In this document: in pieces, positions 2,798 to 42,316 of the stretch
Layout of the letters: each line of letters starts with the position of its first letter
Position numbering within the stretch: the stretch's first letter is position 1
UHGV virus genome: UHGV-1355782
DNA length: 43,206 bases
Reading direction: 5' to 3' (one strand)
DNA from: a virus
The notes under the pieces: model-generated
What the model was told of the DNA's origin: nothing
The model's database searches: none
The model's input: only the letters and a program-made list of their open reading frames with translations
Made by a program: the position numbers and the translations under genes

Positions 2798-4273
2798 ATG
2801 TTAACTATGAACGGTCAGAATCAGGGTGTTAAGACAAAACACCGGGAATGGCTGCATCACTTCGATAAATGGCAGAAGGTACGCCACGCACTGGAAGGCG
2901 ACCTTATTCGCTATCTTCGCAACGTCGGGAAGAACGAACCGGACCCGGCCTACGCAGCACAGCGCCAGGAAGAATACGAGAACGGCGCTATCTGCTACAA
3001 CTTCACTAAGAGAACGCTGGCGGGGATGGTCGGGTCCGTAATGCGCAAAGACCCCGAGCAAATTATCCCGCCTGAACTGGAGTACCTGCTACGCAATGCC
3101 GATGGTTCCGGCGTCGGGCTGTGGCAGCACGCGCAGGATACGTTAATGGAGATTGACTCGGTGGGCCGTGGTGGGTTGCTGGTGGACGCCCCGGAGACGG
3201 CCGCGGCAACGGCGGCAGAGCAGAACGCGGGATTATTAAACCCGGTCATCGCATTCTACACCGCAGAGAACATCATCAACTGGCGGCTGACTCGCGTCGG
3301 TTCTGTTAACCGCGTGACGATGGTCGTGTTGCGTGAGGCATGGGAATACTCGGAACCTGGTGCAGAGTTTGAAACAAAGTTCGGCGAGCAGTATCGCGTT
3401 CTCGATTTGATTGACGGACGCTACCGCCAGCGCATTTACCGCTTCGATGCCGAAGGTGGTGCACAGGGCCAAGTAATCGAAATCTTCCCGGAACTTGGCG
3501 AACAGTTGCGCGGCAAAATCCCGTTCACGTTCATTGGGGCAAGCAACAACGATGCAACCATTGACGACGCACCTTTGCTGCCGTTGGCTGAACTTAATAT
3601 CGGGCATTTCCGTAATAGCGCGGACAATGAGGAGTCCAGCTTCGTTGTTGGGCAACCAACTCTGTTCATTGCCCCCGGCGATAACATGAGCATGGAGCAG
3701 TGGAAAGAAGCCAACCCGCACGGCGTGCGCATGGGGTCGCGTTCAGGCCATAACATCGGGTACGGCGGCAATGCGTTTCTGGTTCAGGCGGGAGAGAACA
3801 ACCTGGCTAAGCAGAATATGCTGGATAAGGAGAACCAGGCCATCCAGATTGGTGCTCAGCTTATCACCCCTACACAGCAAATCACCGCTGAATCGGCCCG
3901 CCTACAACGCGGCGCGGATACGTCCGTTATGGCAACAATCGCACGGAACGTAAGCATGGCGTACACCGATGCGTTGCGCTGGGCGGCGGCGATGCTTGGG
4001 CTACGTGAAGGCACAGAAATTGAGTTCAAGCTGAATATGGAGTTCTTCCTGCAACCGATGACTGCGCAAGACCGTGCTCAGTGGATGGCAGACATTAACG
4101 CAGGCCTGCTACCAGCTACCGCTTACTACGCGGCGTTGCGTAAGGCGGGGGTGACTGACTGGACCGACGAGGACATCCAGAATGCTATCGAGGATGCGCC
4201 TCTGCCGTTGGTTACACAGACTACCGGGGAGATTCCGGCTACAGCGCAGCAGGATGAAGAGGCGGAGCAATGA
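2798..4273 (+). CDS. portal protein
   Basis: 491 aa directly downstream of terL; RBS AAGAGGA; acidic C-terminal tail; synteny. Confidence 0.8.
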   Translation: MLTMNGQNQGVKTKHREWLHHFDKWQKVRHALEGDLIRYLRNVGKNEPDPAYAAQRQEEYENGAICYNFTKRTLAGMVGSVMRKDPEQIIPPELEYLLRNADGSGVGLWQHAQDTLMEIDSVGRGGLLVDAPETAAATAAEQNAGLLNPVIAFYTAENIINWRLTRVGSVNRVTMVVLREAWEYSEPGAEFETKFGEQYRVLDLIDGRYRQRIYRFDAEGGAQGQVIEIFPELGEQLRGKIPFTFIGASNNDATIDDAPLLPLAELNIGHFRNSADNEESSFVVGQPTLFIAPGDNMSMEQWKEANPHGVRMGSRSGHNIGYGGNAFLVQAGENNLAKQNMLDKENQAIQIGAQLITPTQQITAESARLQRGADTSVMATIARNVSMAYTDALRWAAAMLGLREGTEIEFKLNMEFFLQPMTAQDRAQWMADINAGLLPATAYYAALRKAGVTDWTDEDIQNAIEDAPLPLVTQTTGEIPATAQQDEEAEQ

Positions 4274-5789: not shown

Positions 5790-5816
5790 AAGGCCCCTTA
5801 CGGGGCCTTAGTTTTA
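5790..5816. terminator. bidirectional rho-independent terminator
   Basis: AAGGCCCC-ttac-GGGGCCTT with T-run on plus strand and A-run upstream (T-run on minus strand). Confidence 0.7.
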
Positions 5817-6098
5817 TTGCTTTCCTAATGCTTTCTTAATTGCTCTGCTGGCCTGATTTAATGGATGGTCTTCATGGCAATCATCGGAGGATACCTCGCA
5901 AACATCCTCGACGTAATCGCGAAGCTGGCGAAGTGCTTCGAGTAACTCTGGTGCCGAGGAAATAAGTTTTGCGTTAGCCAATTTTACTGAGTCATTTTCC
6001 CGCACACTCATTACCTCGGCCACATAAACATGTCCTGCCCAGATAGCCGTTCCGCGATTAACCCATGCACCGTCTGTACCTTTAAATTTGTGTGTCAT
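5814..6098 (-). CDS. hypothetical protein (94 aa), moron-like
   Basis: ATG 6098 with RBS AGGAG 7 nt upstream on minus strand; own operator-containing promoter; ends at bidirectional terminator. Confidence 0.5.
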   Translation of the reverse strand: MTHKFKGTDGAWVNRGTAIWAGHVYVAEVMSVRENDSVKLANAKLISSAPELLEALRQLRDYVEDVCEVSSDDCHEDHPLNQASRAIKKALGKQ

Positions 6099-6125
6099 TT
6101 TCCATCTCCTGTTTAAGTTAACTGA

Positions 6126-6154
6126 ATAGTACCCTATTATATTGGTGTGTGCAA
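6126..6154 (-). promoter_or_regulatory. class-1 promoter TTGCAC-N17-TACTAT with embedded palindromic operator (6124-6139)
   Basis: minus-strand -35 TTGCAC, 17-bp spacer, -10 TACTAT; spacer carries TAATAG-N4-CTATTC; same element at 15189, 37750, 39057. Confidence 0.5.
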
Positions 6155-6220
6155 ACTATTTGTTTACGTATTCCTGTTATTCCACCTAATTGTAAATGTT
6201 GGAATAAACTATTCGAATAG

Positions 6221-6249
6221 TTGACTTTTCACTAAAAATGTGCTAAGCT
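6221..6249 (+). promoter_or_regulatory. strong sigma70-type promoter (TTGACT-N17-TGnTAAGCT) driving structured leader RNA copy A
   Basis: -35 TTGACT 6221-6226, extended -10 TG-c-TAAGCT 6242-6249; near-identical promoter at 37441. Confidence 0.55.
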
Positions 6250-6253
6250 CCAC

Positions 6254-6363
6254 CTGAGCTTGTGAAGTATGAACAAGCGACCGCGGCGCGGGCAGGTAAC
6301 GGAGCGGGACGTAAGTCCTGAGTGTAGTTACGCTGACGCGTTCGGAAGGGCCATAGTCTATTG
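6254..6363 (+). ncRNA. conserved promoter-proximal structured RNA element, copy A (candidate cis-acting leader or small RNA)
   Basis: no ORF; about 110 nt highly similar to 37473-37584; conserved stem GCTTGT/ACAAGC; hairpin GGGAC-gtaa-GTCCT replaced by GTGCC-atta-GGCAC in copy B. Confidence 0.35.
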
Positions 6364-6429
6364 CTTGTGTAAAAAGTAACTGGTTTACGGAGATTACGCC
6401 GTTTCTATGTTTAAATGATAAGGACTAGC

Positions 6430-6449
6430 GCCCCGCTTTAAGGCGGGGC
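6430..6449 (+). promoter_or_regulatory. GC-rich hairpin (weak intrinsic terminator/attenuator) between leader RNA and spanin RBS
   Basis: GCCCCGC-tttaag-GCGGGGC followed by short TTTACTT. Confidence 0.3.
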
Positions 6450-6473
6450 TTTACTTATCGAGAAAGGAGAAAC

Positions 6474-11725: not shown

Positions 11726-12763
11726 ATGGCTACAACTCCTTTTAAGGGCGCGAATACCGCGCAATTCTATGTGGCGGAAGTGACCCCGGGCGTAACACCA
11801 AGTAACCCGGTCTGGTCGCCGTTGCGAAACACCGGCGGCGTTCCTGCGGTAACCCGCGACGCGCTGACCTCCAACGAACTGGACGGCAGCCGTGAAACCA
11901 CATCCATCCGCACCGGTAACAAGCAGGTTAGTGGTGAGTACGCAATCGAACTTAGCTCACGTAGCCAGGATGATTTCCTCGCAGGCGCGATGACGTCTAC
12001 GTGGCAGGATGGCGTAACCTTAACTGCGGTAGGTATTACGGTAGACCCGGTAGCGAAAACCTTCACCCGCGCCGCCGGTAGCTTCATTACCGATGGCGTT
12101 GAAGTCGGCGACCTTCTGTACTTCGACGGCTTAACCGGAGACAACGCCAAGCCGTTTATCGTTACCGCGGTAACTGCTACGGTTGTTACGGGTGCGGGTA
12201 TCCAACACACCCTGACCGCCGAAGGCCCTATCGAGACCGACGGTAAAACGGGTGACAAGCTGGAAACCGGTAACGCGTGTAAGACATTCTCCATCCTGAC
12301 GTGGTTCAAAGGACAGTGCGGGAACCCGGACGCGTACATGTTGACCAAAGGTGTGGAAATCTCCGGTTTTACTATCGAGCAAGCCGTAAATGCGATGGTA
12401 ACCGGCAGCTTCCCATTCATCGGTCTGAGTCAGGAGATTCTTACCGCGGCGCCAGCAGGTTCCGACTTCTCCCAGGTCACATTCACTGACGAGCCGTTCT
12501 CTTCTGTAGATGTGTCTGTGTTCGACGGTTCTACGCCGTTGCGTTGCGATACTCTGACCATCACCAACGACAACGGTGCTTCCGCGCAGTTCGAACTCGG
12601 CAACAGTAGCGTCGCGTTCGTGGAACGTGGTCGCGCAGCTAACACCTTCTCCATCTCTGGTAAGCTGTACGACATGGCGATGATTCAGAAGTTTATCAAC
12701 GAGCAGCAGGTAGAGATTAACTCTATTCTGGCGGGGGTAAACGGGCTATGTCTTTCAGTTTAA
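11726..12763 (+). CDS. major tail protein (putative)
   Basis: ATG 11726 with RBS AAGAGG (ORF track starts at GTG 11720); Thr/Gly/Val-rich; followed by strong terminator. Confidence 0.55.
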   Translation: MATTPFKGANTAQFYVAEVTPGVTPSNPVWSPLRNTGGVPAVTRDALTSNELDGSRETTSIRTGNKQVSGEYAIELSSRSQDDFLAGAMTSTWQDGVTLTAVGITVDPVAKTFTRAAGSFITDGVEVGDLLYFDGLTGDNAKPFIVTAVTATVVTGAGIQHTLTAEGPIETDGKTGDKLETGNACKTFSILTWFKGQCGNPDAYMLTKGVEISGFTIEQAVNAMVTGSFPFIGLSQEILTAAPAGSDFSQVTFTDEPFSSVDVSVFDGSTPLRCDTLTITNDNGASAQFELGNSSVAFVERGRAANTFSISGKLYDMAMIQKFINEQQVEINSILAGVNGLCLSV

Positions 12764-12898
12764 AACGCGCAGAGCTTACGGCGGTCACACCAGAAATATC
12801 TGGCCCGGAATCAATTACCCAAAGCATAGAAGGACAGTCCACAGGCAACCAGTATCAGTCGTCTATCGTAATTCAACGTATTAGTTACGTATAAAACT

Positions 12899-12923
12899 AA
12901 GGCCCCGAAAGGGGCCTTTTTCT
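12899..12923. terminator. bidirectional rho-independent terminator
   Basis: AAGGCCCC-gaaa-GGGGCCTT flanked by T-run downstream and A-run upstream. Confidence 0.7.
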
Positions 12924-13099
12924 TACTCACTTTTGAACGGCATTTCGTAGAAGTTAGTTAACTGGCCTCGGTCACTTCGTTCTGTCATTTCTTTCGAGGC
13001 CTCTTCCTTGCTACCGACAGCATAAATATCAACCCACTCATCCCATTCTTCGTCATATACACGGATTACATATATTGTTTTCATAATATTTTCACTCAT
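12923..13099 (-). CDS. hypothetical protein (58 aa)
   Basis: ATG 13099 with RBS AGGAG 8 nt upstream; last gene of antisense island. Confidence 0.4.
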   Translation of the reverse strand: MSENIMKTIYVIRVYDEEWDEWVDIYAVGSKEEASKEMTERSDRGQLTNFYEMPFKSE

Positions 13100-13322
13100 C
13101 AATATTACTCCTGTACTCCCGTAACTTCTCCAGACTTTCAATTGCTTCTGCTAAGTCGGTTCCGGTGTCTTTGTGACCGCGCAGACCCATACACAGCAGT
13201 TTCTTTAACGCATGCTGTAGCGCCGGGTCACGGATATCGAAGGCGCGTAGCACATCATAGACGTCTACTGTCATGGTGCTGCCGTGGGTGTTTGTCATTG
13301 TGCGGTTGTATTTTGAAGTCAT
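13092..13322 (-). CDS. hypothetical protein (76 aa)
   Basis: ATGA coupling to upstream HNH gene; RBS GAGAGG. Confidence 0.45.
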   Translation of the reverse strand: MTSKYNRTMTNTHGSTMTVDVYDVLRAFDIRDPALQHALKKLLCMGLRGHKDTGTDLAEAIESLEKLREYRSNIDE

Positions 13323-13792
13323 TTTCCGTGCCTCTCAGTAAAGTCTTTCTTTTCTTTGTAAAAACCTTCGGCATATCTTACGGCGTCTTCTTTGTTGTCG
13401 AAACGCTTGGCTATTCTATTTCCGTTATATTGAATTTGAACTACCCACTTACCGTTATATGTTTTACTAACCCCGGTAACGCCAGACGAGTTATCCCTGC
13501 GCTTTGCTGCATTTTTGCAGTTTATGCGCCGGTCACACAGTCGAAGATTCTCTATACGGTTATCGCTTTTCACACCGTTTATATGGTCAATCTCCTTGCC
13601 TTCTGGTATAGCTCCGTTAAACATTTCCCATATAATTCTGTGGGCGAATGTCATTTTTGACCCTAGTTTAGTTCTTACATACCCTCGTTGGTCCACATAC
13701 CCTACTTTACGTCCTTTCGGGTACTTAGGGTTTACGCTGTCCTTAGCGTAAAGATTCCCGTTTTCGTATTCGTAAACATCATTCCATGTCAA
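13319..13792 (-). CDS. HNH homing endonuclease with AP2-like DNA-binding domain
   Basis: HNH motif EIDHINGVKSDNRIENLRL; C-terminal AP2-like GVTGVSKTYNGKWVVQIQYNG; TTG start coupled (TTGA) to upstream gene. Confidence 0.75.
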   Translation of the reverse strand: MTWNDVYEYENGNLYAKDSVNPKYPKGRKVGYVDQRGYVRTKLGSKMTFAHRIIWEMFNGAIPEGKEIDHINGVKSDNRIENLRLCDRRINCKNAAKRRDNSSGVTGVSKTYNGKWVVQIQYNGNRIAKRFDNKEDAVRYAEGFYKEKKDFTERHGK

Positions 13793-14928
13793 TTTATACC
13801 CCCTATCATTTCTGGTGATATTGTTAAACGTGCCACCTCCCCATATTCGGCACTATAAGTTATCACGTTAGCACTACGACCGGACATCCAGCCCCCTCGC
13901 GATGCGTAAGCATCTTTCGCAGCCAGGGTTCGGTGTTGTTCGACTACCATATTGCGGCTTTCTACTAATTTCTGATGATGTAGATGCCCTACATGAGCGT
14001 AGCTGTATGTGCTTTCTCCAAAAGCCTTACGGAATTTAGAAATCATTACTGACTCTATGGCGTCGAATCTCGCACGGTGTCCATGATGCATGAATAGCGT
14101 AGTTTTCCCGTGCTGGACCATCTTGTATACGTCTGGGGAGGTGTCCACAAATACGCGAGGTTCGTTGTCGTACAATGTACAGAACATTTCGGCGAGCCAT
14201 ACAGAGCCTACAGGGTCGTGGTTACCTTGAACTATTAAAAGTTTGACTGTGTGATGTTTAACAAGCGCCATATCGACAACACGACGCACCATACGAATCA
14301 TGTAGCGAACTAGTTTCTGATAGCGAGTATCGGCGTCTAACACATGACGCGACTCAGGGGTAACGGCATCAAGACTATCGAAGTGCGCGAAGTCGCCCAG
14401 CAGGTTAATAACCCCAGTCCCCGCATCCGGTGCTTTCTGAAACGCGGCATCGAACCAGCGGGAGAACAGGTCTTCTGCAATCTTCATATCCCAGTCATCG
14501 CCGCTCTCGTCAGCCCATGCAAGCATACCGAGATGGAAATCAGATACAGTGTAGAGATTGAGCAGTTTATCGTCACGTTTGGCGCGAACAGGTTTAACAG
14601 GCGCAACCGGTGTAATCTCTGACTTCATACCTTCAATCACGGCTTTCATCAACTCGACCTGACGTTCGGCATCGGTGTCGGTCTTAACCCATTGCAACTT
14701 AGTGTTGCCAAACTCGTCCACCAGGGACGACGTCCCTTTAATCTTGTAGCCGTCCGGTACAAGGTGACTAACATCACGCCCGTGACCTACGCCTTTCTTT
14801 GCCAGCTTCGCTTTACGGATACGAATTACGCGGTCTGAGATGCCGTATTTACGGGCGATGTCTACATTCTTCATCCCGGCGTTCAATTCTTCCTGTAACT
14901 GTTCGTCGGTTATTTTCTTCTGGGCCAT
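13789..14928 (-). CDS. HTH-domain protein fused to calcineurin-like metallophosphoesterase
   Basis: N-terminal HTH (VDIARKYGISDRVIRIRKAK); metallophosphatase motifs LLGDFAHFD, VQGNHD, HHGH; RBS GAGGAAG. Confidence 0.7.
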   Translation of the reverse strand: MAQKKITDEQLQEELNAGMKNVDIARKYGISDRVIRIRKAKLAKKGVGHGRDVSHLVPDGYKIKGTSSLVDEFGNTKLQWVKTDTDAERQVELMKAVIEGMKSEITPVAPVKPVRAKRDDKLLNLYTVSDFHLGMLAWADESGDDWDMKIAEDLFSRWFDAAFQKAPDAGTGVINLLGDFAHFDSLDAVTPESRHVLDADTRYQKLVRYMIRMVRRVVDMALVKHHTVKLLIVQGNHDPVGSVWLAEMFCTLYDNEPRVFVDTSPDVYKMVQHGKTTLFMHHGHRARFDAIESVMISKFRKAFGESTYSYAHVGHLHHQKLVESRNMVVEQHRTLAAKDAYASRGGWMSGRSANVITYSAEYGEVARLTISPEMIGGIN

Positions 14929-14966: not shown

Positions 14967-15158
14967 TCACTTCTCGTTAACATTCGAGTTGCACGCCCAG
15001 ATTAAAATAAATACCCACGGCAGCAGAACCCAACCAAGAAACAGGTTAGCCATAAATATTGCCAACTTCGCTTTATGGTTGCGGAAATACGCAACCAGGA
15101 AAGGCGCGAAATAAGCGAGAAGTGCAAACAGAATTAAGGAAACTGGTAAACTTGACAT
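14967..15158 (-). CDS. small membrane protein, superinfection-immunity-like (Imm family-like)
   Basis: two TM segments with motif NLFLGWVLLPWVFILIWA; RBS AAGGGG before ATG 15158 (ORF track starts 15173). Confidence 0.5.
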   Translation of the reverse strand: MSSLPVSLILFALLAYFAPFLVAYFRNHKAKLAIFMANLFLGWVLLPWVFILIWACNSNVNEK

Positions 15159-15188
15159 TTTAAACCCCTTCATTGTTGGTGTAAGTGA

Positions 15189-15217
15189 ATAGTACCCTAT
15201 TATATTGGGGTGTGCAA
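15189..15217 (-). promoter_or_regulatory. class-1 promoter TTGCAC-N17-TACTAT with palindromic operator (15187-15202)
   Basis: near-identical to element at 6126-6154; directly upstream of antisense island. Confidence 0.5.
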
Positions 15218-24400: not shown

Positions 24401-24424
24401 AGGCCCCAAACGGGGCCTTTTCTC
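24401..24424 (+). terminator. rho-independent terminator after tailspike
   Basis: AGGCCCC-aaac-GGGGCCT followed by TTTCTC. Confidence 0.65.
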
Positions 24425-27058: not shown

Positions 27059-27346
27059 CTAACTATAATAGTTCGCTATTAGGTCGTCAACCTGTTTAAA
27101 CGAACCAACGACAAAAACATTTGCTCCACGTTTACGCATCCGCTCGTGCTCTCGTAGCTGGTGTGGGTCTGGCTTCGTGTTTTCGTCTTTCTTAACCTCG
27201 ACGAACCAGATGATGCCGCCGGGGAGAATTACCAGCAGGTCAGGAGCGCCCGCTCTATTTTCGTACGACAATTTGCGTACGAGGCCGCCGATAGCCTCGA
27301 ATCGCTCTTTTGCGTATTTCTGGATGCGCCCCTCAGGCGTACTCAT
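27059..27346 (-). CDS. VRR-NUC domain nuclease
   Basis: PD-(D/E)XK-type motif GAPDLLVILPGGIIWFVEVKK; C-terminus ...IANYYS encoded by the promoter/operator repeat. Confidence 0.65.
   Translation of the reverse strand: MSTPEGRIQKYAKERFEAIGGLVRKLSYENRAGAPDLLVILPGGIIWFVEVKKDENTKPDPHQLREHERMRKRGANVFVVGSFKQVDDLIANYYS
27062..27090 (-). promoter_or_regulatory. class-2 promoter TTGACG-N17-TATAGT with palindromic operator (27066-27081)
   Basis: minus-strand -35 TTGACG, 17-bp spacer containing TAATAG-cgaa-CTATTA, -10 TATAGT; lies inside the 3' end of the VRR-NUC gene. Confidence 0.5.
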
Positions 27347-30230: not shown

Positions 30231-30254
30231 TAAAAAGGCCCAATGAAGGGCCTT
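30231..30254 (-). terminator. rho-independent terminator (minus strand) after SSB-like gene
   Basis: minus-strand hairpin AAGGCCC-ttcatt-GGGCCTT followed by TTTTT. Confidence 0.6.
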
Positions 30255-30960: not shown

Positions 30961-31461
30961 TTAACTATAATAGTTCGCTATTCGGTAGTCAACTTCTTTT
31001 AGCAAATTACTTTCAAAATTCTTTCTCGCCACGTTAGCCTGTTCAGGAGTTTCGAATAGTCCAAGGTAACGATATTGCCCGTTTACGGTAATTCCAGCCT
31101 GCCATTTACCATGGCTTTTGCGCCAAAACACGCCAGTGTACCCGCTTTTGTTATGACTTCTTCCGGTTTGAATGCCGCCTTTAGCCACATTATCGCTATG
31201 AGCGATTAACTGGAGATTCTCTATCCTGTCATCATTTCTTATCGCATTTATATGGTCCACCTCAAACCCTTCAGGTATAGGGCCGTTGTGGTACTCCCAT
31301 ATTAAACGGCTTCTTTGGTAGGACTTACGATTAATGTAGATCTGCACATACCCTGAATGGTGGAGGCTTCCTGCCTCCTGACCAGCTAACATTCTTTTTG
31401 TATTGTGGCGATAGATTAGTTTCCCGTTTTCATAAATGAAACGCTCCCGAACTAAACTCAT
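30961..31461 (-). CDS. HNH homing endonuclease with AP2-like domain
   Basis: HNH motif DHINAIRNDDRIENLQL, AP2-like GYTGVFWRKSHGKWQAGI; ATGA-coupled start at 31461; C-terminus ...IANYYS. Confidence 0.7.
   Translation of the reverse strand: MSLVRERFIYENGKLIYRHNTKRMLAGQEAGSLHHSGYVQIYINRKSYQRSRLIWEYHNGPIPEGFEVDHINAIRNDDRIENLQLIAHSDNVAKGGIQTGRSHNKSGYTGVFWRKSHGKWQAGITVNGQYRYLGLFETPEQANVARKNFESNLLKEVDYRIANYYS
30964..30992 (-). promoter_or_regulatory. class-2 promoter TTGACT-N17-TATAGT with palindromic operator (30968-30983)
   Basis: same architecture as 27062-27090; lies inside the 3' end of the HNH gene 30961-31461. Confidence 0.5.
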
Positions 31462-34034: not shown

Positions 34035-34064
34035 ACTATAATAGCGAACTATTCATGTTGTCAA
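34035..34064 (-). promoter_or_regulatory. class-2 promoter TTGACA-N18-TATAGT with palindromic operator (34039-34054), leftward early promoter
   Basis: minus-strand consensus -35 TTGACA; operator TAATAG-cgaa-CTATTC in spacer. Confidence 0.55.
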
Positions 34065-34068
34065 TGGG

Positions 34069-34097
34069 CTTTTCTAAAATAATTAATATGGTACTAT
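34069..34097 (+). promoter_or_regulatory. putative rightward promoter for Cro-like gene with operator-like site (34084-34099)
   Basis: -10 TACTAT 34092-34097 preceded by TAATAT-ggta-CTATTC; poor -35. Confidence 0.35.
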
Positions 34098-34128
34098 TCA
34101 CGTATCAACTGACTAAGGAGTAACTGAC

Positions 34129-34344
34129 ATGCAACCATCAGAACTAGGTATCCGTGTAGAACAACGCCGCAAAGAACTCGGCATCTCCCAGCGTCGTCTG
34201 GCTGTCCTGGCCGGGGTTTCCCAGGGCGCGATTAACCAGCTTGCGCTCGGGGTAACTCAGGACGTCCGCCCGGCAACGCTGTTTAAACTGGCGGAAGTGC
34301 TGCAAGTAGATGCTAAGTGGCTGGCGTTCGGTGAAGGGGCTTAA
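34129..34344 (+). CDS. Cro/CI-type (XRE family) HTH transcriptional regulator
   Basis: HTH motif LGISQRRLAVLAGVSQGAINQLALG; RBS AAGGAG; divergent from early operon; followed by terminator. Confidence 0.7.
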   Translation: MQPSELGIRVEQRRKELGISQRRLAVLAGVSQGAINQLALGVTQDVRPATLFKLAEVLQVDAKWLAFGEGA

Positions 34345-34359
34345 CGCCCCTTTCTTTTT
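34334..34359 (+). terminator. rho-independent terminator after Cro-like gene
   Basis: AGGGGC-ttaac-GCCCCT followed by TTCTTTTT. Confidence 0.6.
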
Positions 34360-36877: not shown

Positions 36878-37168
36878 TTATCTTTTAGCCAGACATTCCA
36901 TCAAATGTGCGTACTTACGATAATAATCTGCGACAATCTCATCACCGAAATACTGATAAACGTAGGATAGGTGGTCGGAGACATCGATGGAAGCCGACAT
37001 TGTGCTGAGTCTTCGGAGACTAATCAACTGCAATTCTTCTGTAACGCAAAACGGCAAATATGAGTCCAGTTTACAGGAAACGTTGAAACACAACGCGTAT
37101 TCACCTTGCACTAAATAAACCATATAAGCATTGTCGTTCTCTTTATCGTGGAAAATTACACCTTTCAT
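36878..37168 (-). CDS. hypothetical protein (96 aa)
   Basis: RBS AAGGAG; ATGA coupling to upstream HTH gene. Confidence 0.5.
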   Translation of the reverse strand: MKGVIFHDKENDNAYMVYLVQGEYALCFNVSCKLDSYLPFCVTEELQLISLRRLSTMSASIDVSDHLSYVYQYFGDEIVADYYRKYAHLMECLAKR

Positions 37169-37333
37169 TTCACGTTCTCCTTAATCCATGCTTCAACTTT
37201 ATTACGGTCAAATGTTCCTGGCATCCGGCGGCCCATTACTTTAACGCTGCAATCAGGAAACTTTCCACTCTTAATCCAGTTATTGATTGTCTGGCGGGTG
37301 ACGCCGATTAATTCTGCAACTTCATTGATAGTC
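37165..37333 (-). CDS. AlpA/excisionase-type HTH DNA-binding protein (putative regulator)
   Basis: MTINEVAELIGVTRQTINNWIKSGKFP helix-turn-helix; start ATG 37333 with RBS AGGAG (ORF track extends to 37425). Confidence 0.6.
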
Positions 37334-37440
37334 ATTTCGCGCTCTCCTGTGTAAGATGTATCGAAGTATAAGGCGGTAACTTTGTAAAAGCAACCAAAAC
37401 ACCACACAAAGTTACTAAGATGCAAAAGATGCTACTAGTA

Positions 37441-37469
37441 TTGACTTTTACTTAAAAATATGCTAAGCT
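37441..37469 (+). promoter_or_regulatory. strong sigma70-type promoter (TTGACT-N17-TGnTAAGCT) driving structured leader RNA copy B
   Basis: -35 TTGACT 37441-37446; extended -10 TG-c-TAAGCT 37461-37469; matches promoter at 6221. Confidence 0.55.
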
Positions 37470-37472
37470 TCA

Positions 37473-37584
37473 CTGAGCTTGTGAGATATCGCAAGCGACC
37501 GCGGAGCGGCAGGGAACGCAACGCGTGCCATTAGGCACTTGAGTGTAGTTCCGCTGACGCTTTCGGAAGGGTCAAAGTCTATTG
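37473..37584 (+). ncRNA. conserved promoter-proximal structured RNA element, copy B
   Basis: non-coding; aligns with 6254-6363 with compensatory hairpin change; followed by GC hairpin GGGGTGGGC-taac-GCCCACCC at 37670-37690. Confidence 0.35.
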
Positions 37585-37749
37585 TTAATCCCGCCTAAAT
37601 ATCCAAGTCACTGATAATTAAAAGTTTCTATAGTTGCCGTGAGCAAGGTAGAGAGTACTTCACTCCGCTGGGGTGGGCTAACGCCCACCCACTGCGTTGC
37701 GTACTCTTTTAAGAAACGAAAGAATCACAACGGCAACGTAACTATTCTC

Positions 37750-37779
37750 TTGCGCACCCCAACCATAATAGGATACTAT
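37750..37779 (+). promoter_or_regulatory. class-1 promoter TTGCGC-N18-TACTAT with palindromic operator (37766-37781)
   Basis: upstream of first rightward small gene. Confidence 0.45.
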
Positions 37780-37813
37780 TCACTTATTGGAACGAGACAG
37801 AGGAGTGAGGGTT

Positions 37814-38540: not shown

Positions 38541-38753
38541 ATGGGCGAGTGGATTAAGTGTAGCGAGCGGATGCCGCCTAAAATTACGGGCGTTCTTGTA
38601 GCAACGGAGTTCGGACATAAAGGTGATTGGCGTATGAAGTGGGCTACCTATATTCCGGGGCACCCTGATGCCGATGATGGGTGGTTAATTCCCGGAGCTT
38701 CGTGGAAGCCATCACACTGGATGCCGTTACCAGAGCCGCCATCGCTGGTGTAA
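38541..38753 (+). CDS. DUF551-like phage protein
   Basis: Trp-rich pattern W..CSERMP...W..W...WMPLP typical of small enterophage proteins; RBS GAGGTGA. Confidence 0.5.
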   Translation: MGEWIKCSERMPPKITGVLVATEFGHKGDWRMKWATYIPGHPDADDGWLIPGASWKPSHWMPLPEPPSLV

Positions 38754-38787
38754 CAGGTCAATAGTTTACTATTTGGCTTTGTGACTT

Positions 38788-38816
38788 ACGCTGCTACACA
38801 GCAGCGTATCATTTTT
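38788..38816 (+). terminator. rho-independent terminator
   Basis: ACGCTGCT-acac-AGCAGCGT followed by T-rich ATCATTTTTCTCATTTTT. Confidence 0.6.
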
Positions 38817-39056: not shown

Positions 39057-39085
39057 TTGCATGCTAAGATAGAATAGGCTACTAT
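39057..39085 (+). promoter_or_regulatory. class-1 promoter TTGCAT-N17-TACTAT with palindromic operator (39072-39087)
   Basis: fourth copy of the TTGCAY/TACTAT element. Confidence 0.45.
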
Positions 39086-39116
39086 TCATTTACACAAACG
39101 AGAGGAGAGACGGAAG

Positions 39117-41682: not shown

Positions 41683-42166
41683 TGGATTGCAGTTCAAGAA
41701 AGCGTGGGAGAAGTTTCGCGGAACTGCATACAAAGCCACAAAGAACGAGAAATACTGGACTATAGGCTGGGGCCATACCGGGCCGGATGTGTATGAAGGG
41801 CAGAAGATTACTGAGGGTCAGGGGCTTCTGCTACTGAACCGCGATATGCAGTGGGCTGTGAAAGCAGTCGACGAGGTAGCGCACCCCTCACTGACCCAGG
41901 CCCAGTTTGATGCTGTTGTTGACCTGGTGTTTAACGCAGGAACTGGCGTTATTGCTGCTAATACCGGAACCGGTAAGGCACTACGTAGCGGGGACATCCC
42001 CACCTTACGGCATAAGTTGAGCCAGTTCATCAACCAACGCAACCCGAAAACCGGTAAACTCGAGCCTGTGCTTGGCCTACGCCGTCGCGTAGCCGGACGT
42101 CTGGCACTGTTCGACGGTAAACCATGGCGGGAGGCAGAAGCTATCGGGCGCGCGGTGAAAGGTTGA
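41660..42166 (+). CDS. endolysin, T4-lysozyme-like (GH24) muramidase
   Basis: catalytic-region motif EKFRGTAYKATKNEKYWTIGWGHT; GTG 41660 preceded by RBS GGAGGA (ORF track starts 41609). Confidence 0.8.
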   Translation: MSRNISDNGLQFKKAWEKFRGTAYKATKNEKYWTIGWGHTGPDVYEGQKITEGQGLLLLNRDMQWAVKAVDEVAHPSLTQAQFDAVVDLVFNAGTGVIAANTGTGKALRSGDIPTLRHKLSQFINQRNPKTGKLEPVLGLRRRVAGRLALFDGKPWREAEAIGRAVKG

Positions 42167-42265: not shown

Positions 42266-42287
42266 ATCTATTTTCTGCAATGACTAG

Positions 42288-42316
42288 TTGACTATTACCA
42301 TCGACCCTACTATATT
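42288..42316 (+). promoter_or_regulatory. sigma70-type promoter TTGACT-N17-TATATT
   Basis: good -35/-10 with 17-bp spacer, upstream of the small-ORF run. Confidence 0.45.

Follow-up and report, generated by a model that had tools for sequence, protein, structure and literature searches.

A palindrome embedded in sigma-70 promoters of a Kagunavirus genome as the putative operator of a 434-Cro-like protein

OR1-3 and OL1-3, the operators of 434 Cro and 434 repressor, are 14 bp long and follow the consensus ACAA(G/T)-N4-NTTGT, in which the outer 4-5 bp are conserved and the centre is not contacted. In the 434 repressor complex, operator positions 1 and 4 are contacted by Gln28 and Gln33, and positions 2-3 by the second residue of the recognition helix. 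In lambda and P22, Cro is a small early dimeric repressor that occludes RNA polymerase at PL/PR and includes its own promoter in its regulon. Here we describe a comparable arrangement in UHGV virus genome UHGV-1355782, a stretch of 43,206 nucleotides (nt) analysed over its whole length and called the window below. By its sequence the window is a Kagunavirus (Guernseyvirinae), a lytic Escherichia coli phage. It contains a recurrent 14-bp palindrome, AATAGNNNNCTATT (AATAG-N4-CTATT), and a gene at 34129..34344 (+ strand) for a 71-amino-acid (aa) XRE/434-Cro-like protein, referred to here as XRE. We infer, with a probability of about 0.68, that the palindrome is the putative operator of this protein.

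The palindrome is found in eight exact copies in the window, at 6125, 15188, 27067, 30969, 34040, 37767, 38760 and 39073. The mean expectation is 0.03, and none of 100 dinucleotide shuffles reached eight. For an E. coli or Salmonella chromosome, composition alone would predict about 4 copies. When one mismatch was allowed, 12 matches were found compared to 1.07 expected. The four copies added lie at 34085, 6216, 42283 and 21377; the last of these is within a tail gene and is probably a chance match. When every 5-nt inverted repeat with a gap of 0-8 was counted de novo, AATAG with a gap of 4 ranked first (8 copies versus 4 for the runner-up, which is a terminator stem). Seven exact copies and one copy with a single mismatch are embedded in promoters of the sigma-70 type, in two registers. 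The first-pass annotation had reported the palindrome in at least eight promoters, and all eight of its promoter coordinates were verified when the strings were checked in the sequence. Its list of sites was not complete, as the exact copy at 38760-38773 had been left off.

The eight promoters (P1 to P8) have -35/-10 spacings of 17-18 bp and fall into two classes. Class 1 consists of P1 (TTGCAC-N17-TACTAT, 6154-6126; exact operator at 6125..6138, - strand), P2 (15217-15189; exact operator at 15188..15201, - strand), P7 (TTGCGC-N18-TACTAT, 37750-37779; exact operator at 37767..37780, + strand), P8 (TTGCAT-N17-TACTAT, 39057-39085; exact operator at 39073..39086, + strand) and the weak promoter P6 (34069-34097), whose operator O2 (34085..34098, + strand) reads AATATGGTACTATT and has one mismatch. 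Class 2 consists of P3 (TTGACG-N17-TATAGT, 27090-27062; exact operator at 27067..27080), P4 (TTGACT-N17-TATAGT, 30992-30964; exact operator at 30969..30982) and P5 (TTGACA-N18-TATAGT, 34064-34035; exact operator O1 at 34040..34053), all three on the - strand. In an independent scan of 24-43 kb, P3, P4 and P5 were the best matches to the sigma-70 consensus. P6 is the XRE gene's own promoter. Its -35 is poor (CTTTTC), as had been noted before, and O2 overlaps its -10.

With the last base of the -10 hexamer taken as -7, the palindrome occupies -19..-6 in the five class 1 promoters (centre -12.5) and -25..-12 in the three class 2 promoters (centre -18.5), and every promoter-embedded site is centred exactly at one of these two positions. 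In class 1, the -10 hexamer TACTAT takes its first two bases from the end of the centre and its other four from the start of the right half-site. An offset of one helical turn between the classes had been proposed, but the measured offset is 6 bp, or about 0.6 turn. In class 2, a second palindrome, AACTAT-T-ATAGTT (27062-27074 and 30964-30976), overlaps the first and is made up of the right half-site plus the -10. The hexamers TATAGT and TACTAT also resemble the operator half-site or its complement. No exact site is present in the primase-operon promoter, the two structured-RNA promoters described below, or the promoters at 42163 and 42288.

XRE is encoded by a monocistronic unit with a terminator at 34333-34353 and is a putative repressor; GenBank records label the gene 'transcriptional repressor'. 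The protein contains a Pfam HTH_3 domain (PF01381; E 1.2e-12, 48 bits against a cut-off of 23). Its best PDB match, by sequence (E 5e-7) as well as by structure, is 434 Cro, which is likewise 71 aa long, is about 40% identical and has the same five-helix fold. An AlphaFold2 (AF2) model, built from Kagunavirus-type homologues only, has a pLDDT of 79 and helices at residues 5-17, 21-28, 32-39, 48-57 and 62-66, of which the third would be the recognition helix. The top Foldseek matches of this model are 2cro (434 Cro) and 1pra, with TM scores of 0.73-0.79.

With the 434 consensus as given above, the 434 and window operators have the same 5-N4-5 geometry, and their half-sites share positions 1, 4 and 5 (A, A and G). 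The Gln aligned with Gln28 of 434 repressor is invariant in six of six aligned sequences. At the position aligned with Gln33 the window XRE has Gln, where 434 Cro has Leu. The second residue of the recognition helix is Gln in 434 and Gly in the window XRE. The recognition helices read SQGAINQL in the window, KQQSIQLI in 434 Cro, SQSLITHL in Jersey and TQSAISHL in the clade of vB_STM-ZS-like phages. The sequence GVSQGAINQLALGVTQDV is invariant in nine aligned Kagunavirus-type XRE proteins, down to 77% overall identity, and G33 is replaced by S in one of 18 further XRE variants obtained by tblastn.

O1 and O2 are the only paired sites of the window and they adjoin the XRE gene. They lie 36-89 bp upstream of its start codon, in a divergent promoter region, and are 45 bp apart from centre to centre. 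The O2 mismatch is kept in 37 distinct Kagunavirus upstream sequences, in an alignment that was anchored on the XRE start codon and was thus independent of the motif. The position of both sites beside the regulator gene, with O2 over its -10, suggests autoregulation as in a 434-type pair.

The 26-38 kb region of the window matches 462 phage records. The best are Escherichia Kagunavirus (86-90% identity), and many Salmonella Jerseyviruses match at lower identity. The annotated relatives fFiEco03, Jersey and fBC-Eco01 are siphovirus genomes of 41-45 kb with a common layout: a rightward structural block broken by two short leftward cassettes, a leftward replication block, the small XRE gene, a leftward primase operon, rightward small open reading frames (ORFs) and the lysis genes. 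A motif scan across related genomes had been suggested as a check of the palindrome. In 52 genomes or loci (39 Kagunavirus and 13 Jerseyvirus), half-sites were kept and centres varied, and AATAG with a gap of 4 was the top or tied-top palindrome in all but two loci, which are short or poor in sites and contain two exact copies apiece. There were 88 distinct exact sites in Kagunavirus, with at least 20 centres, and 21 in Jerseyvirus, with at least 11 (CGAA, CTAA, GATA and GCTA are examples), all with fixed half-sites. The base flanking the half-site is T in 42 of 42 Jerseyvirus half-sites; in Kagunavirus it is T in 50% and G in 41%. When XRE helices were compared with half-sites across Guernseyvirinae, this flanking base was the only part of the motif that differed between the genera. 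Two phages with an XRE no more than 77-79% identical to that of the window have the palindrome as well.

The P4 site illustrates how the centre changes. On the plus strand it reads AATAGTTCGCTATT in the window, AATAGCTAACTATT in two relatives (L001 and L003) and AATAGTTAACTATT in Jersey, with half-sites kept and centres different. Read along transcription, the sites of P3 and P4 (27067 and 30969) are AATAGCGAACTATT, and that of P5 (34040) is the reverse complement, AATAGTTCGCTATT. The same 14-mer is thus used in both orientations relative to transcription, and therefore the element works either way round.

The same operator was found outside Guernseyvirinae. Viral and genome collections were searched, at the DNA level only, for two palindromes 6-36 bp apart, and at least 156 loci were obtained. 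Among the matches listed, five loci of 64-66% GC have two pairs of exact sites: Sphingomonas montanisoli NZ_VTOU01000004 (L099), Rhizorhabdus histidinilytica NZ_FUYM01000003 (L138) and three IMG/VR contigs (L059, L071 and L072). According to the ORFs of L071 and L072, one pair is enclosed by a cI-like gene and a divergent cro-like gene and is located where the cI-like gene starts; the second pair lies downstream. Within the 156 loci listed, significant similarity to the window XRE was confined to the HTH domain of the cI-like protein (blastp, 47% identity, E 2e-9). Its recognition helix, TQGAISQI, is close to the SQGAINQL of the window, and one of the Sphingomonadaceae prophage operators resembles those of class 2 in its position within a TTGACG promoter spacer. 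The operator core, AATAG-N4-CTATT, is thus the same in these uncharacterised cI/cro regions as in the window, and the recognition helix is almost so. The regions differ from the window in that they belong to a temperate element of 64-66% GC with a divergent cro-like gene, have two pairs of sites (four in all) and encode a cI of 219-239 aa, a length that allows a C-terminal domain. Most other paired-site loci were set aside, many of them being low-GC chance matches or regularly spaced tandem arrays. In an unrelated phage group, represented by three IMG/VR loci of GC 0.47-0.48 (L064, L066 and L086), at least seven copies were found of a 17-20-mer that is longer and asymmetric and whose centre, ACTAATAGATAACTATT(T/A), does not vary. 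The palindrome within this element is coincidental, and the element resembles a phage-specific promoter or a repeat family.

Several observations weigh against XRE as the binder. Jerseyvirus XRE is only about 50% identical to the window XRE and has the recognition helix SQSLITHL, yet the core half-site is the same. The vB_STM-ZS-like clade (L005 and L052-L055), a third lineage of Guernseyvirinae, keeps an XRE with a Jersey-like helix (TQSAISHL) and has no AATAG palindromes; its orthologous promoters contain only 2-mismatch remnants, such as ATTAG-N4-GTATT, and each genome has one GATACT-N14-AGTATC repeat. No replacement operator was found in these five loci by de novo palindrome and promoter scans. 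This clade also lacks the small HTH_17 protein discussed next, and its pattern, taken alone, fits HTH_17 better than XRE. The Sphingomonadaceae link comes from one prophage family with two cI variants. Because the related loci were fetched by XRE homology, the constant presence of XRE in them is partly circular. As a separate observation, XRE in the vB_STM-ZS-like clade (7054-7275 in L005) heads the primase operon on the same strand and is not a divergent monocistron.

A real operator might be bound by HTH_17, an excisionase/MerR-like protein of 56 aa (37168..37335, - strand; Pfam HTH_17, E 1e-9), made from an unregulated promoter that heads the primase operon. We consider this unlikely, although it accounts for some of the distribution. 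HTH_17 is 78-100% conserved across most of the Kagunavirus and Jerseyvirus loci that share the half-site (a 64% identical variant is found in L025 and L033, both Kagunavirus), whereas XRE is only about 50% identical between the genera; HTH_17 homologues in the phage collection were confined to these genera (Guernseyvirinae). Its absence from the palindrome-less vB_STM-ZS-like clade points the same way. The HTH_17 promoter (37393-37365, TTGCTT-N17-TATACT) has no site, and no site with up to two mismatches was found between 34085 and 37767; this can be read as expected of an upstream regulator or, against HTH_17, as the lack of any site near its gene. The protein is of the monomer-type winged HTH without a dimerisation region, a poor fit to a 5-N4-5 palindrome, and the family typically binds direct repeats. 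In phages with the K1H-type HTH_17 the putative recognition helix differs (STMTLNRW versus TRQTINNW), but five exact sites are kept. The Sphingomonadaceae prophages have the same operator and no HTH_17 homologue, with only spurious matches at E > 2. Two Kagunaviruses, L024 and L027, lack the gene and keep three and six exact sites, respectively; their XRE is 98.6% identical to that of the window. The balance tips to XRE because of these HTH_17-less Kagunaviruses, the O1 and O2 sites adjoining the XRE gene, and the match of helix and operator in Sphingomonadaceae. A MerR-type activator that binds the spacer was rejected, as it would need a 19-20 bp spacer where 17-18 bp is found, and HTH_17 is too short at 56 aa for a coiled-coil dimerisation helix. 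Where the primase operon begins, L024 and L027 have exchanged a module (3624-4209 and 12559-13144, respectively, orthologous to window 36878-37335): in place of the HTH_17 gene and the 96-aa gene beside it, they have a 47-aa Cys-rich, zinc-ribbon-like ORF and an ORF of 149 aa without a Pfam match.

A transcription factor of the host (E. coli or Salmonella), or another phage protein, could also bind the palindrome, and a conserved host factor would explain why two genera with divergent XRE helices have the same core half-site. To our knowledge, however, no enterobacterial factor has an AATAG-N4-CTATT consensus. The vB_STM-ZS-like phages infect Salmonella without the site, and the same operator with a matching cI helix in Sphingomonadaceae prophages points to a specificity borne by the phage XRE; we regard a host factor or another phage protein as improbable. 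Less probable still is the published view that the sequences are phage-specific promoters recognised by an RNA polymerase that the phage encodes or modifies. In its favour, the 20-mers chosen by PHIRE in fBC-Eco01 are the same, all sites are at the starts of transcription units, and GenBank OM272052 annotates the motif as conserved promoter sequences. However, each site has sigma-70 -35 and -10 hexamers around it, spaced by 17-18 bp. Their two-fold symmetry, their two registers 6 bp apart and their use in both orientations are unlike a polymerase-recognition element, and the same palindrome forms the paired sites around cI in unrelated prophages. The annotations of fFiEco03, Jersey and fBC-Eco01 contain no gene for an RNA polymerase or sigma factor, and none was found in Pfam calls on L215 and L216 or among the large ORFs of the window, whose homologues are all accounted for. 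That the repeats are copies of a duplicated promoter cassette without binding function can be given hardly any weight either. P1, P2 and P7 share an additional spacer sequence, CAC(A/C)CCAA(T/C)AT, which suggests common descent of these cassettes. Against duplication, there are two classes with different registers, P5 is inverted, the P8 spacer is unrelated, and the half-sites are constant, with varying centres, in genera whose neighbouring gene has diverged by about 50%. Three further readings, in which the palindrome is a restriction/methylase or homing-endonuclease target, a set of replication iterons or a site of MerR-type activation, were dropped, because the sites are confined to core promoters, dispersed, and placed in normal 17-18 bp spacers.

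The Cro-like protein named in the first-pass annotation is, as judged from its HTH_3 domain, the adjoining O1 and O2 and the matching prophage helix, the best-supported candidate binder. The idea of a single phage regulator for early and accessory units, two antisense cassettes included, is likewise supported in silico by the embedded operators and their two registers. The fBC-Eco01 paper (PMC9825357) describes the PHIRE 20-mers as promoters of 'the phage-encoded RNA polymerase', and the VB_EcoS-Golestan paper (PMC7203180, Table S4) lists TAATAGGGTACTATTCATTA and related sequences as PHIRE conserved promoters. These promoters and the operator sites are the same sequences at orthologous positions, with the consensus tgAATAGTa-ccTATTat-T. 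Neither paper notes the dyad symmetry, the surrounding sigma-70 hexamers or the link to the XRE gene. Literature searches on the motif sequence, Jerseyvirus transcriptomics and Jersey-like promoters returned nothing relevant beyond these two PHIRE reports, and no experimental work on this circuit was found. Most likely, the Kagunavirus 'phage promoters' are mislabelled and are host sigma-70 promoters with an embedded putative repressor operator.

The genes served by the promoters indicate what such a repressor could control. P1 drives an antisense 94-aa ORF (5814-6098) within the structural region. P2 heads an antisense cassette with an Imm_superinfect protein (14967-15173; Pfam E 9e-13), a metallophosphoesterase homologue (13789-14928) and small ORFs; a homologue of the cassette is annotated in fFiEco03. 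Downstream of P3 are a small ORF, an ORF of methyltransferase size and SNF2 helicase genes, and downstream of P4 are a DUF2815/ssDNA-binding gene and the DNA polymerase operon. P5 drives a leftward nuclease operon. P7 drives a rightward block of small early ORFs, and P8 drives further small ORFs 5' of the lysis genes.

We propose that the host sigma-70 RNA polymerase would fire all eight promoters after infection, while XRE would accumulate from its own weak, monocistronic unit. XRE would bind AATAG-N4-CTATT as a dimer, with one recognition helix per half-site and without base-specific reading of the centre. A class 1 site would then be covered over the -10, and a class 2 site over the spacer up to the first -10 base. 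As the operators overlap the -10 or the spacer in all eight promoters, XRE binding would exclude RNA polymerase, and on the positions of the sites the regulation is likely to be repression. We further infer its timing: the two rightward small-ORF blocks (P7 and P8), the three leftward replication/recombination operons (P3, P4 and P5) and the two antisense accessory cassettes (P1 and P2) would be turned down as XRE builds up. Because O2 at the XRE promoter has a conserved mismatch, we propose that it would be filled last and that self-repression would occur only at higher XRE concentration.

The remaining copies of the motif are less clear. The exact palindrome at 38760..38773, to which no strand is assigned, lacks a -35 that can be recognised and is flanked by a DUF551 gene (38541-38753) and a terminator (38787-38808). 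It is exact in only a subset of Kagunaviruses, for example in L027 at 14662, and reads AATAGTTTGGGATT in the others. This copy may represent an orphan or young operator or act as a roadblock. Two possible weak sites on the + strand have one mismatch each. The copy at 6216..6229, AATAGTTGACTTTT, overlaps the -35 of the promoter of structured-RNA copy 1 and is kept in L001 and L003. The copy at 42283..42296, ACTAGTTGACTATT, overlaps the -35 of the promoter 42288-42316, upstream of small ORFs that precede the terminase genes; at the orthologous place Jersey has AATAGTTGACTAGT, with the mismatch in the opposite half. These conserved copies might be weak operators or merely an extended -35, 'AGTTGACT'.

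The structured RNA is a non-coding element of about 165-200 nt, present in two copies at 6221-6452 and 37441-37715 (+ strand) that are 78% identical where aligned. Each copy lies between a strong TTGACT-N17-TAAGCT promoter and a hairpin terminator. The spanin/capsid genes follow one copy and the early small-ORF block follows the other. It had been stated that both RNA promoters lack the operator. This holds for 37441, where no site with up to two mismatches is present, but not for 6221, where AATAGTTGACTTTT lies over the -35. Directly 5' of the latter -35, at 6206-6219, is an 'everted' perfect palindrome, ACTATTCGAATAGT, with the half-sites in opposite order and a 2-bp gap; it is kept in L001 and L003 and is not found in the second RNA copy. 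An Rfam search of the window matched no family. The position and duplication of the element recall cis-acting antiterminator RNAs such as HK022 put. In addition, a hairpin of the AGGCCC-N6-GGGCCT type (GGCCC with a gap of 6) is present in four copies (5791-5808, 12900-12917, 24401-24418 and 30236-30253), at the borders of convergent gene blocks and kept in relatives. These hairpins are probably bidirectional terminators.

Our reading corrects the published annotation of the Kagunavirus 'phage promoters' and offers a regulatory map for Kagunavirus and Jerseyvirus that consists of one regulator gene, eight promoters and a weaker self-operator. Phages of both genera are frequently proposed for phage therapy and food biocontrol. 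If XRE is the repressor, a phage regarded as strictly lytic would have one small Cro-like protein that could shut almost all of its early, replication and accessory promoters, and the 71-aa protein supplied in trans, or a prophage repressor of matching specificity, is predicted to blunt infection. The helix-operator match between an enterobacterial lytic phage and alphaproteobacterial prophages would be one data point for an XRE recognition code. A more speculative thought, which we doubt, is that beyond timing the circuit gives reversible self-silencing (a carrier or pseudolysogenic state without integrase) together with 'heteroimmunity' to prophage cI through QGAI(N/S)Q-type specificity and a recognition code portable across two proteobacterial classes. 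Were this so, Kagunavirus and Jerseyvirus therapy phages would be sensitive to resident prophages with matching cI specificity.

Compared with the described systems, the window retains a part of a familiar circuit. Its half-site, AATAG, differs from that of 434, and it has no partner cI, integrase or tripartite OR. The 434 sites are clustered at two promoters; in the lytic genome of the window, the sites are scattered among eight. Neither cI nor an integrase or another lysogeny gene was found in the annotation of the close relatives (fFiEco03, Jersey and fBC-Eco01) or among the window ORFs; therefore, the window does not contain a complete lambdoid immunity region but its Cro-like half only. 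Unlike in lambda and P22, the putative regulon is genome-wide, with at least eight promoters that include replication and accessory operons, and there is no lysogeny option; unlike lambda, the phage has no Q-type antiterminator gene for late control, as far as annotation shows. Virulent phages of Gram-positive hosts, such as the cos-type Streptococcus thermophilus phages, reportedly retain Cro-like repressors. The concept of a lytic phage that keeps the Cro half is the same there, although the lineages and operators are unrelated. The sequence comparisons thus place this system as a conventional Cro-type repressor-operator regulon kept by a lytic phage, familiar rather than new in concept.

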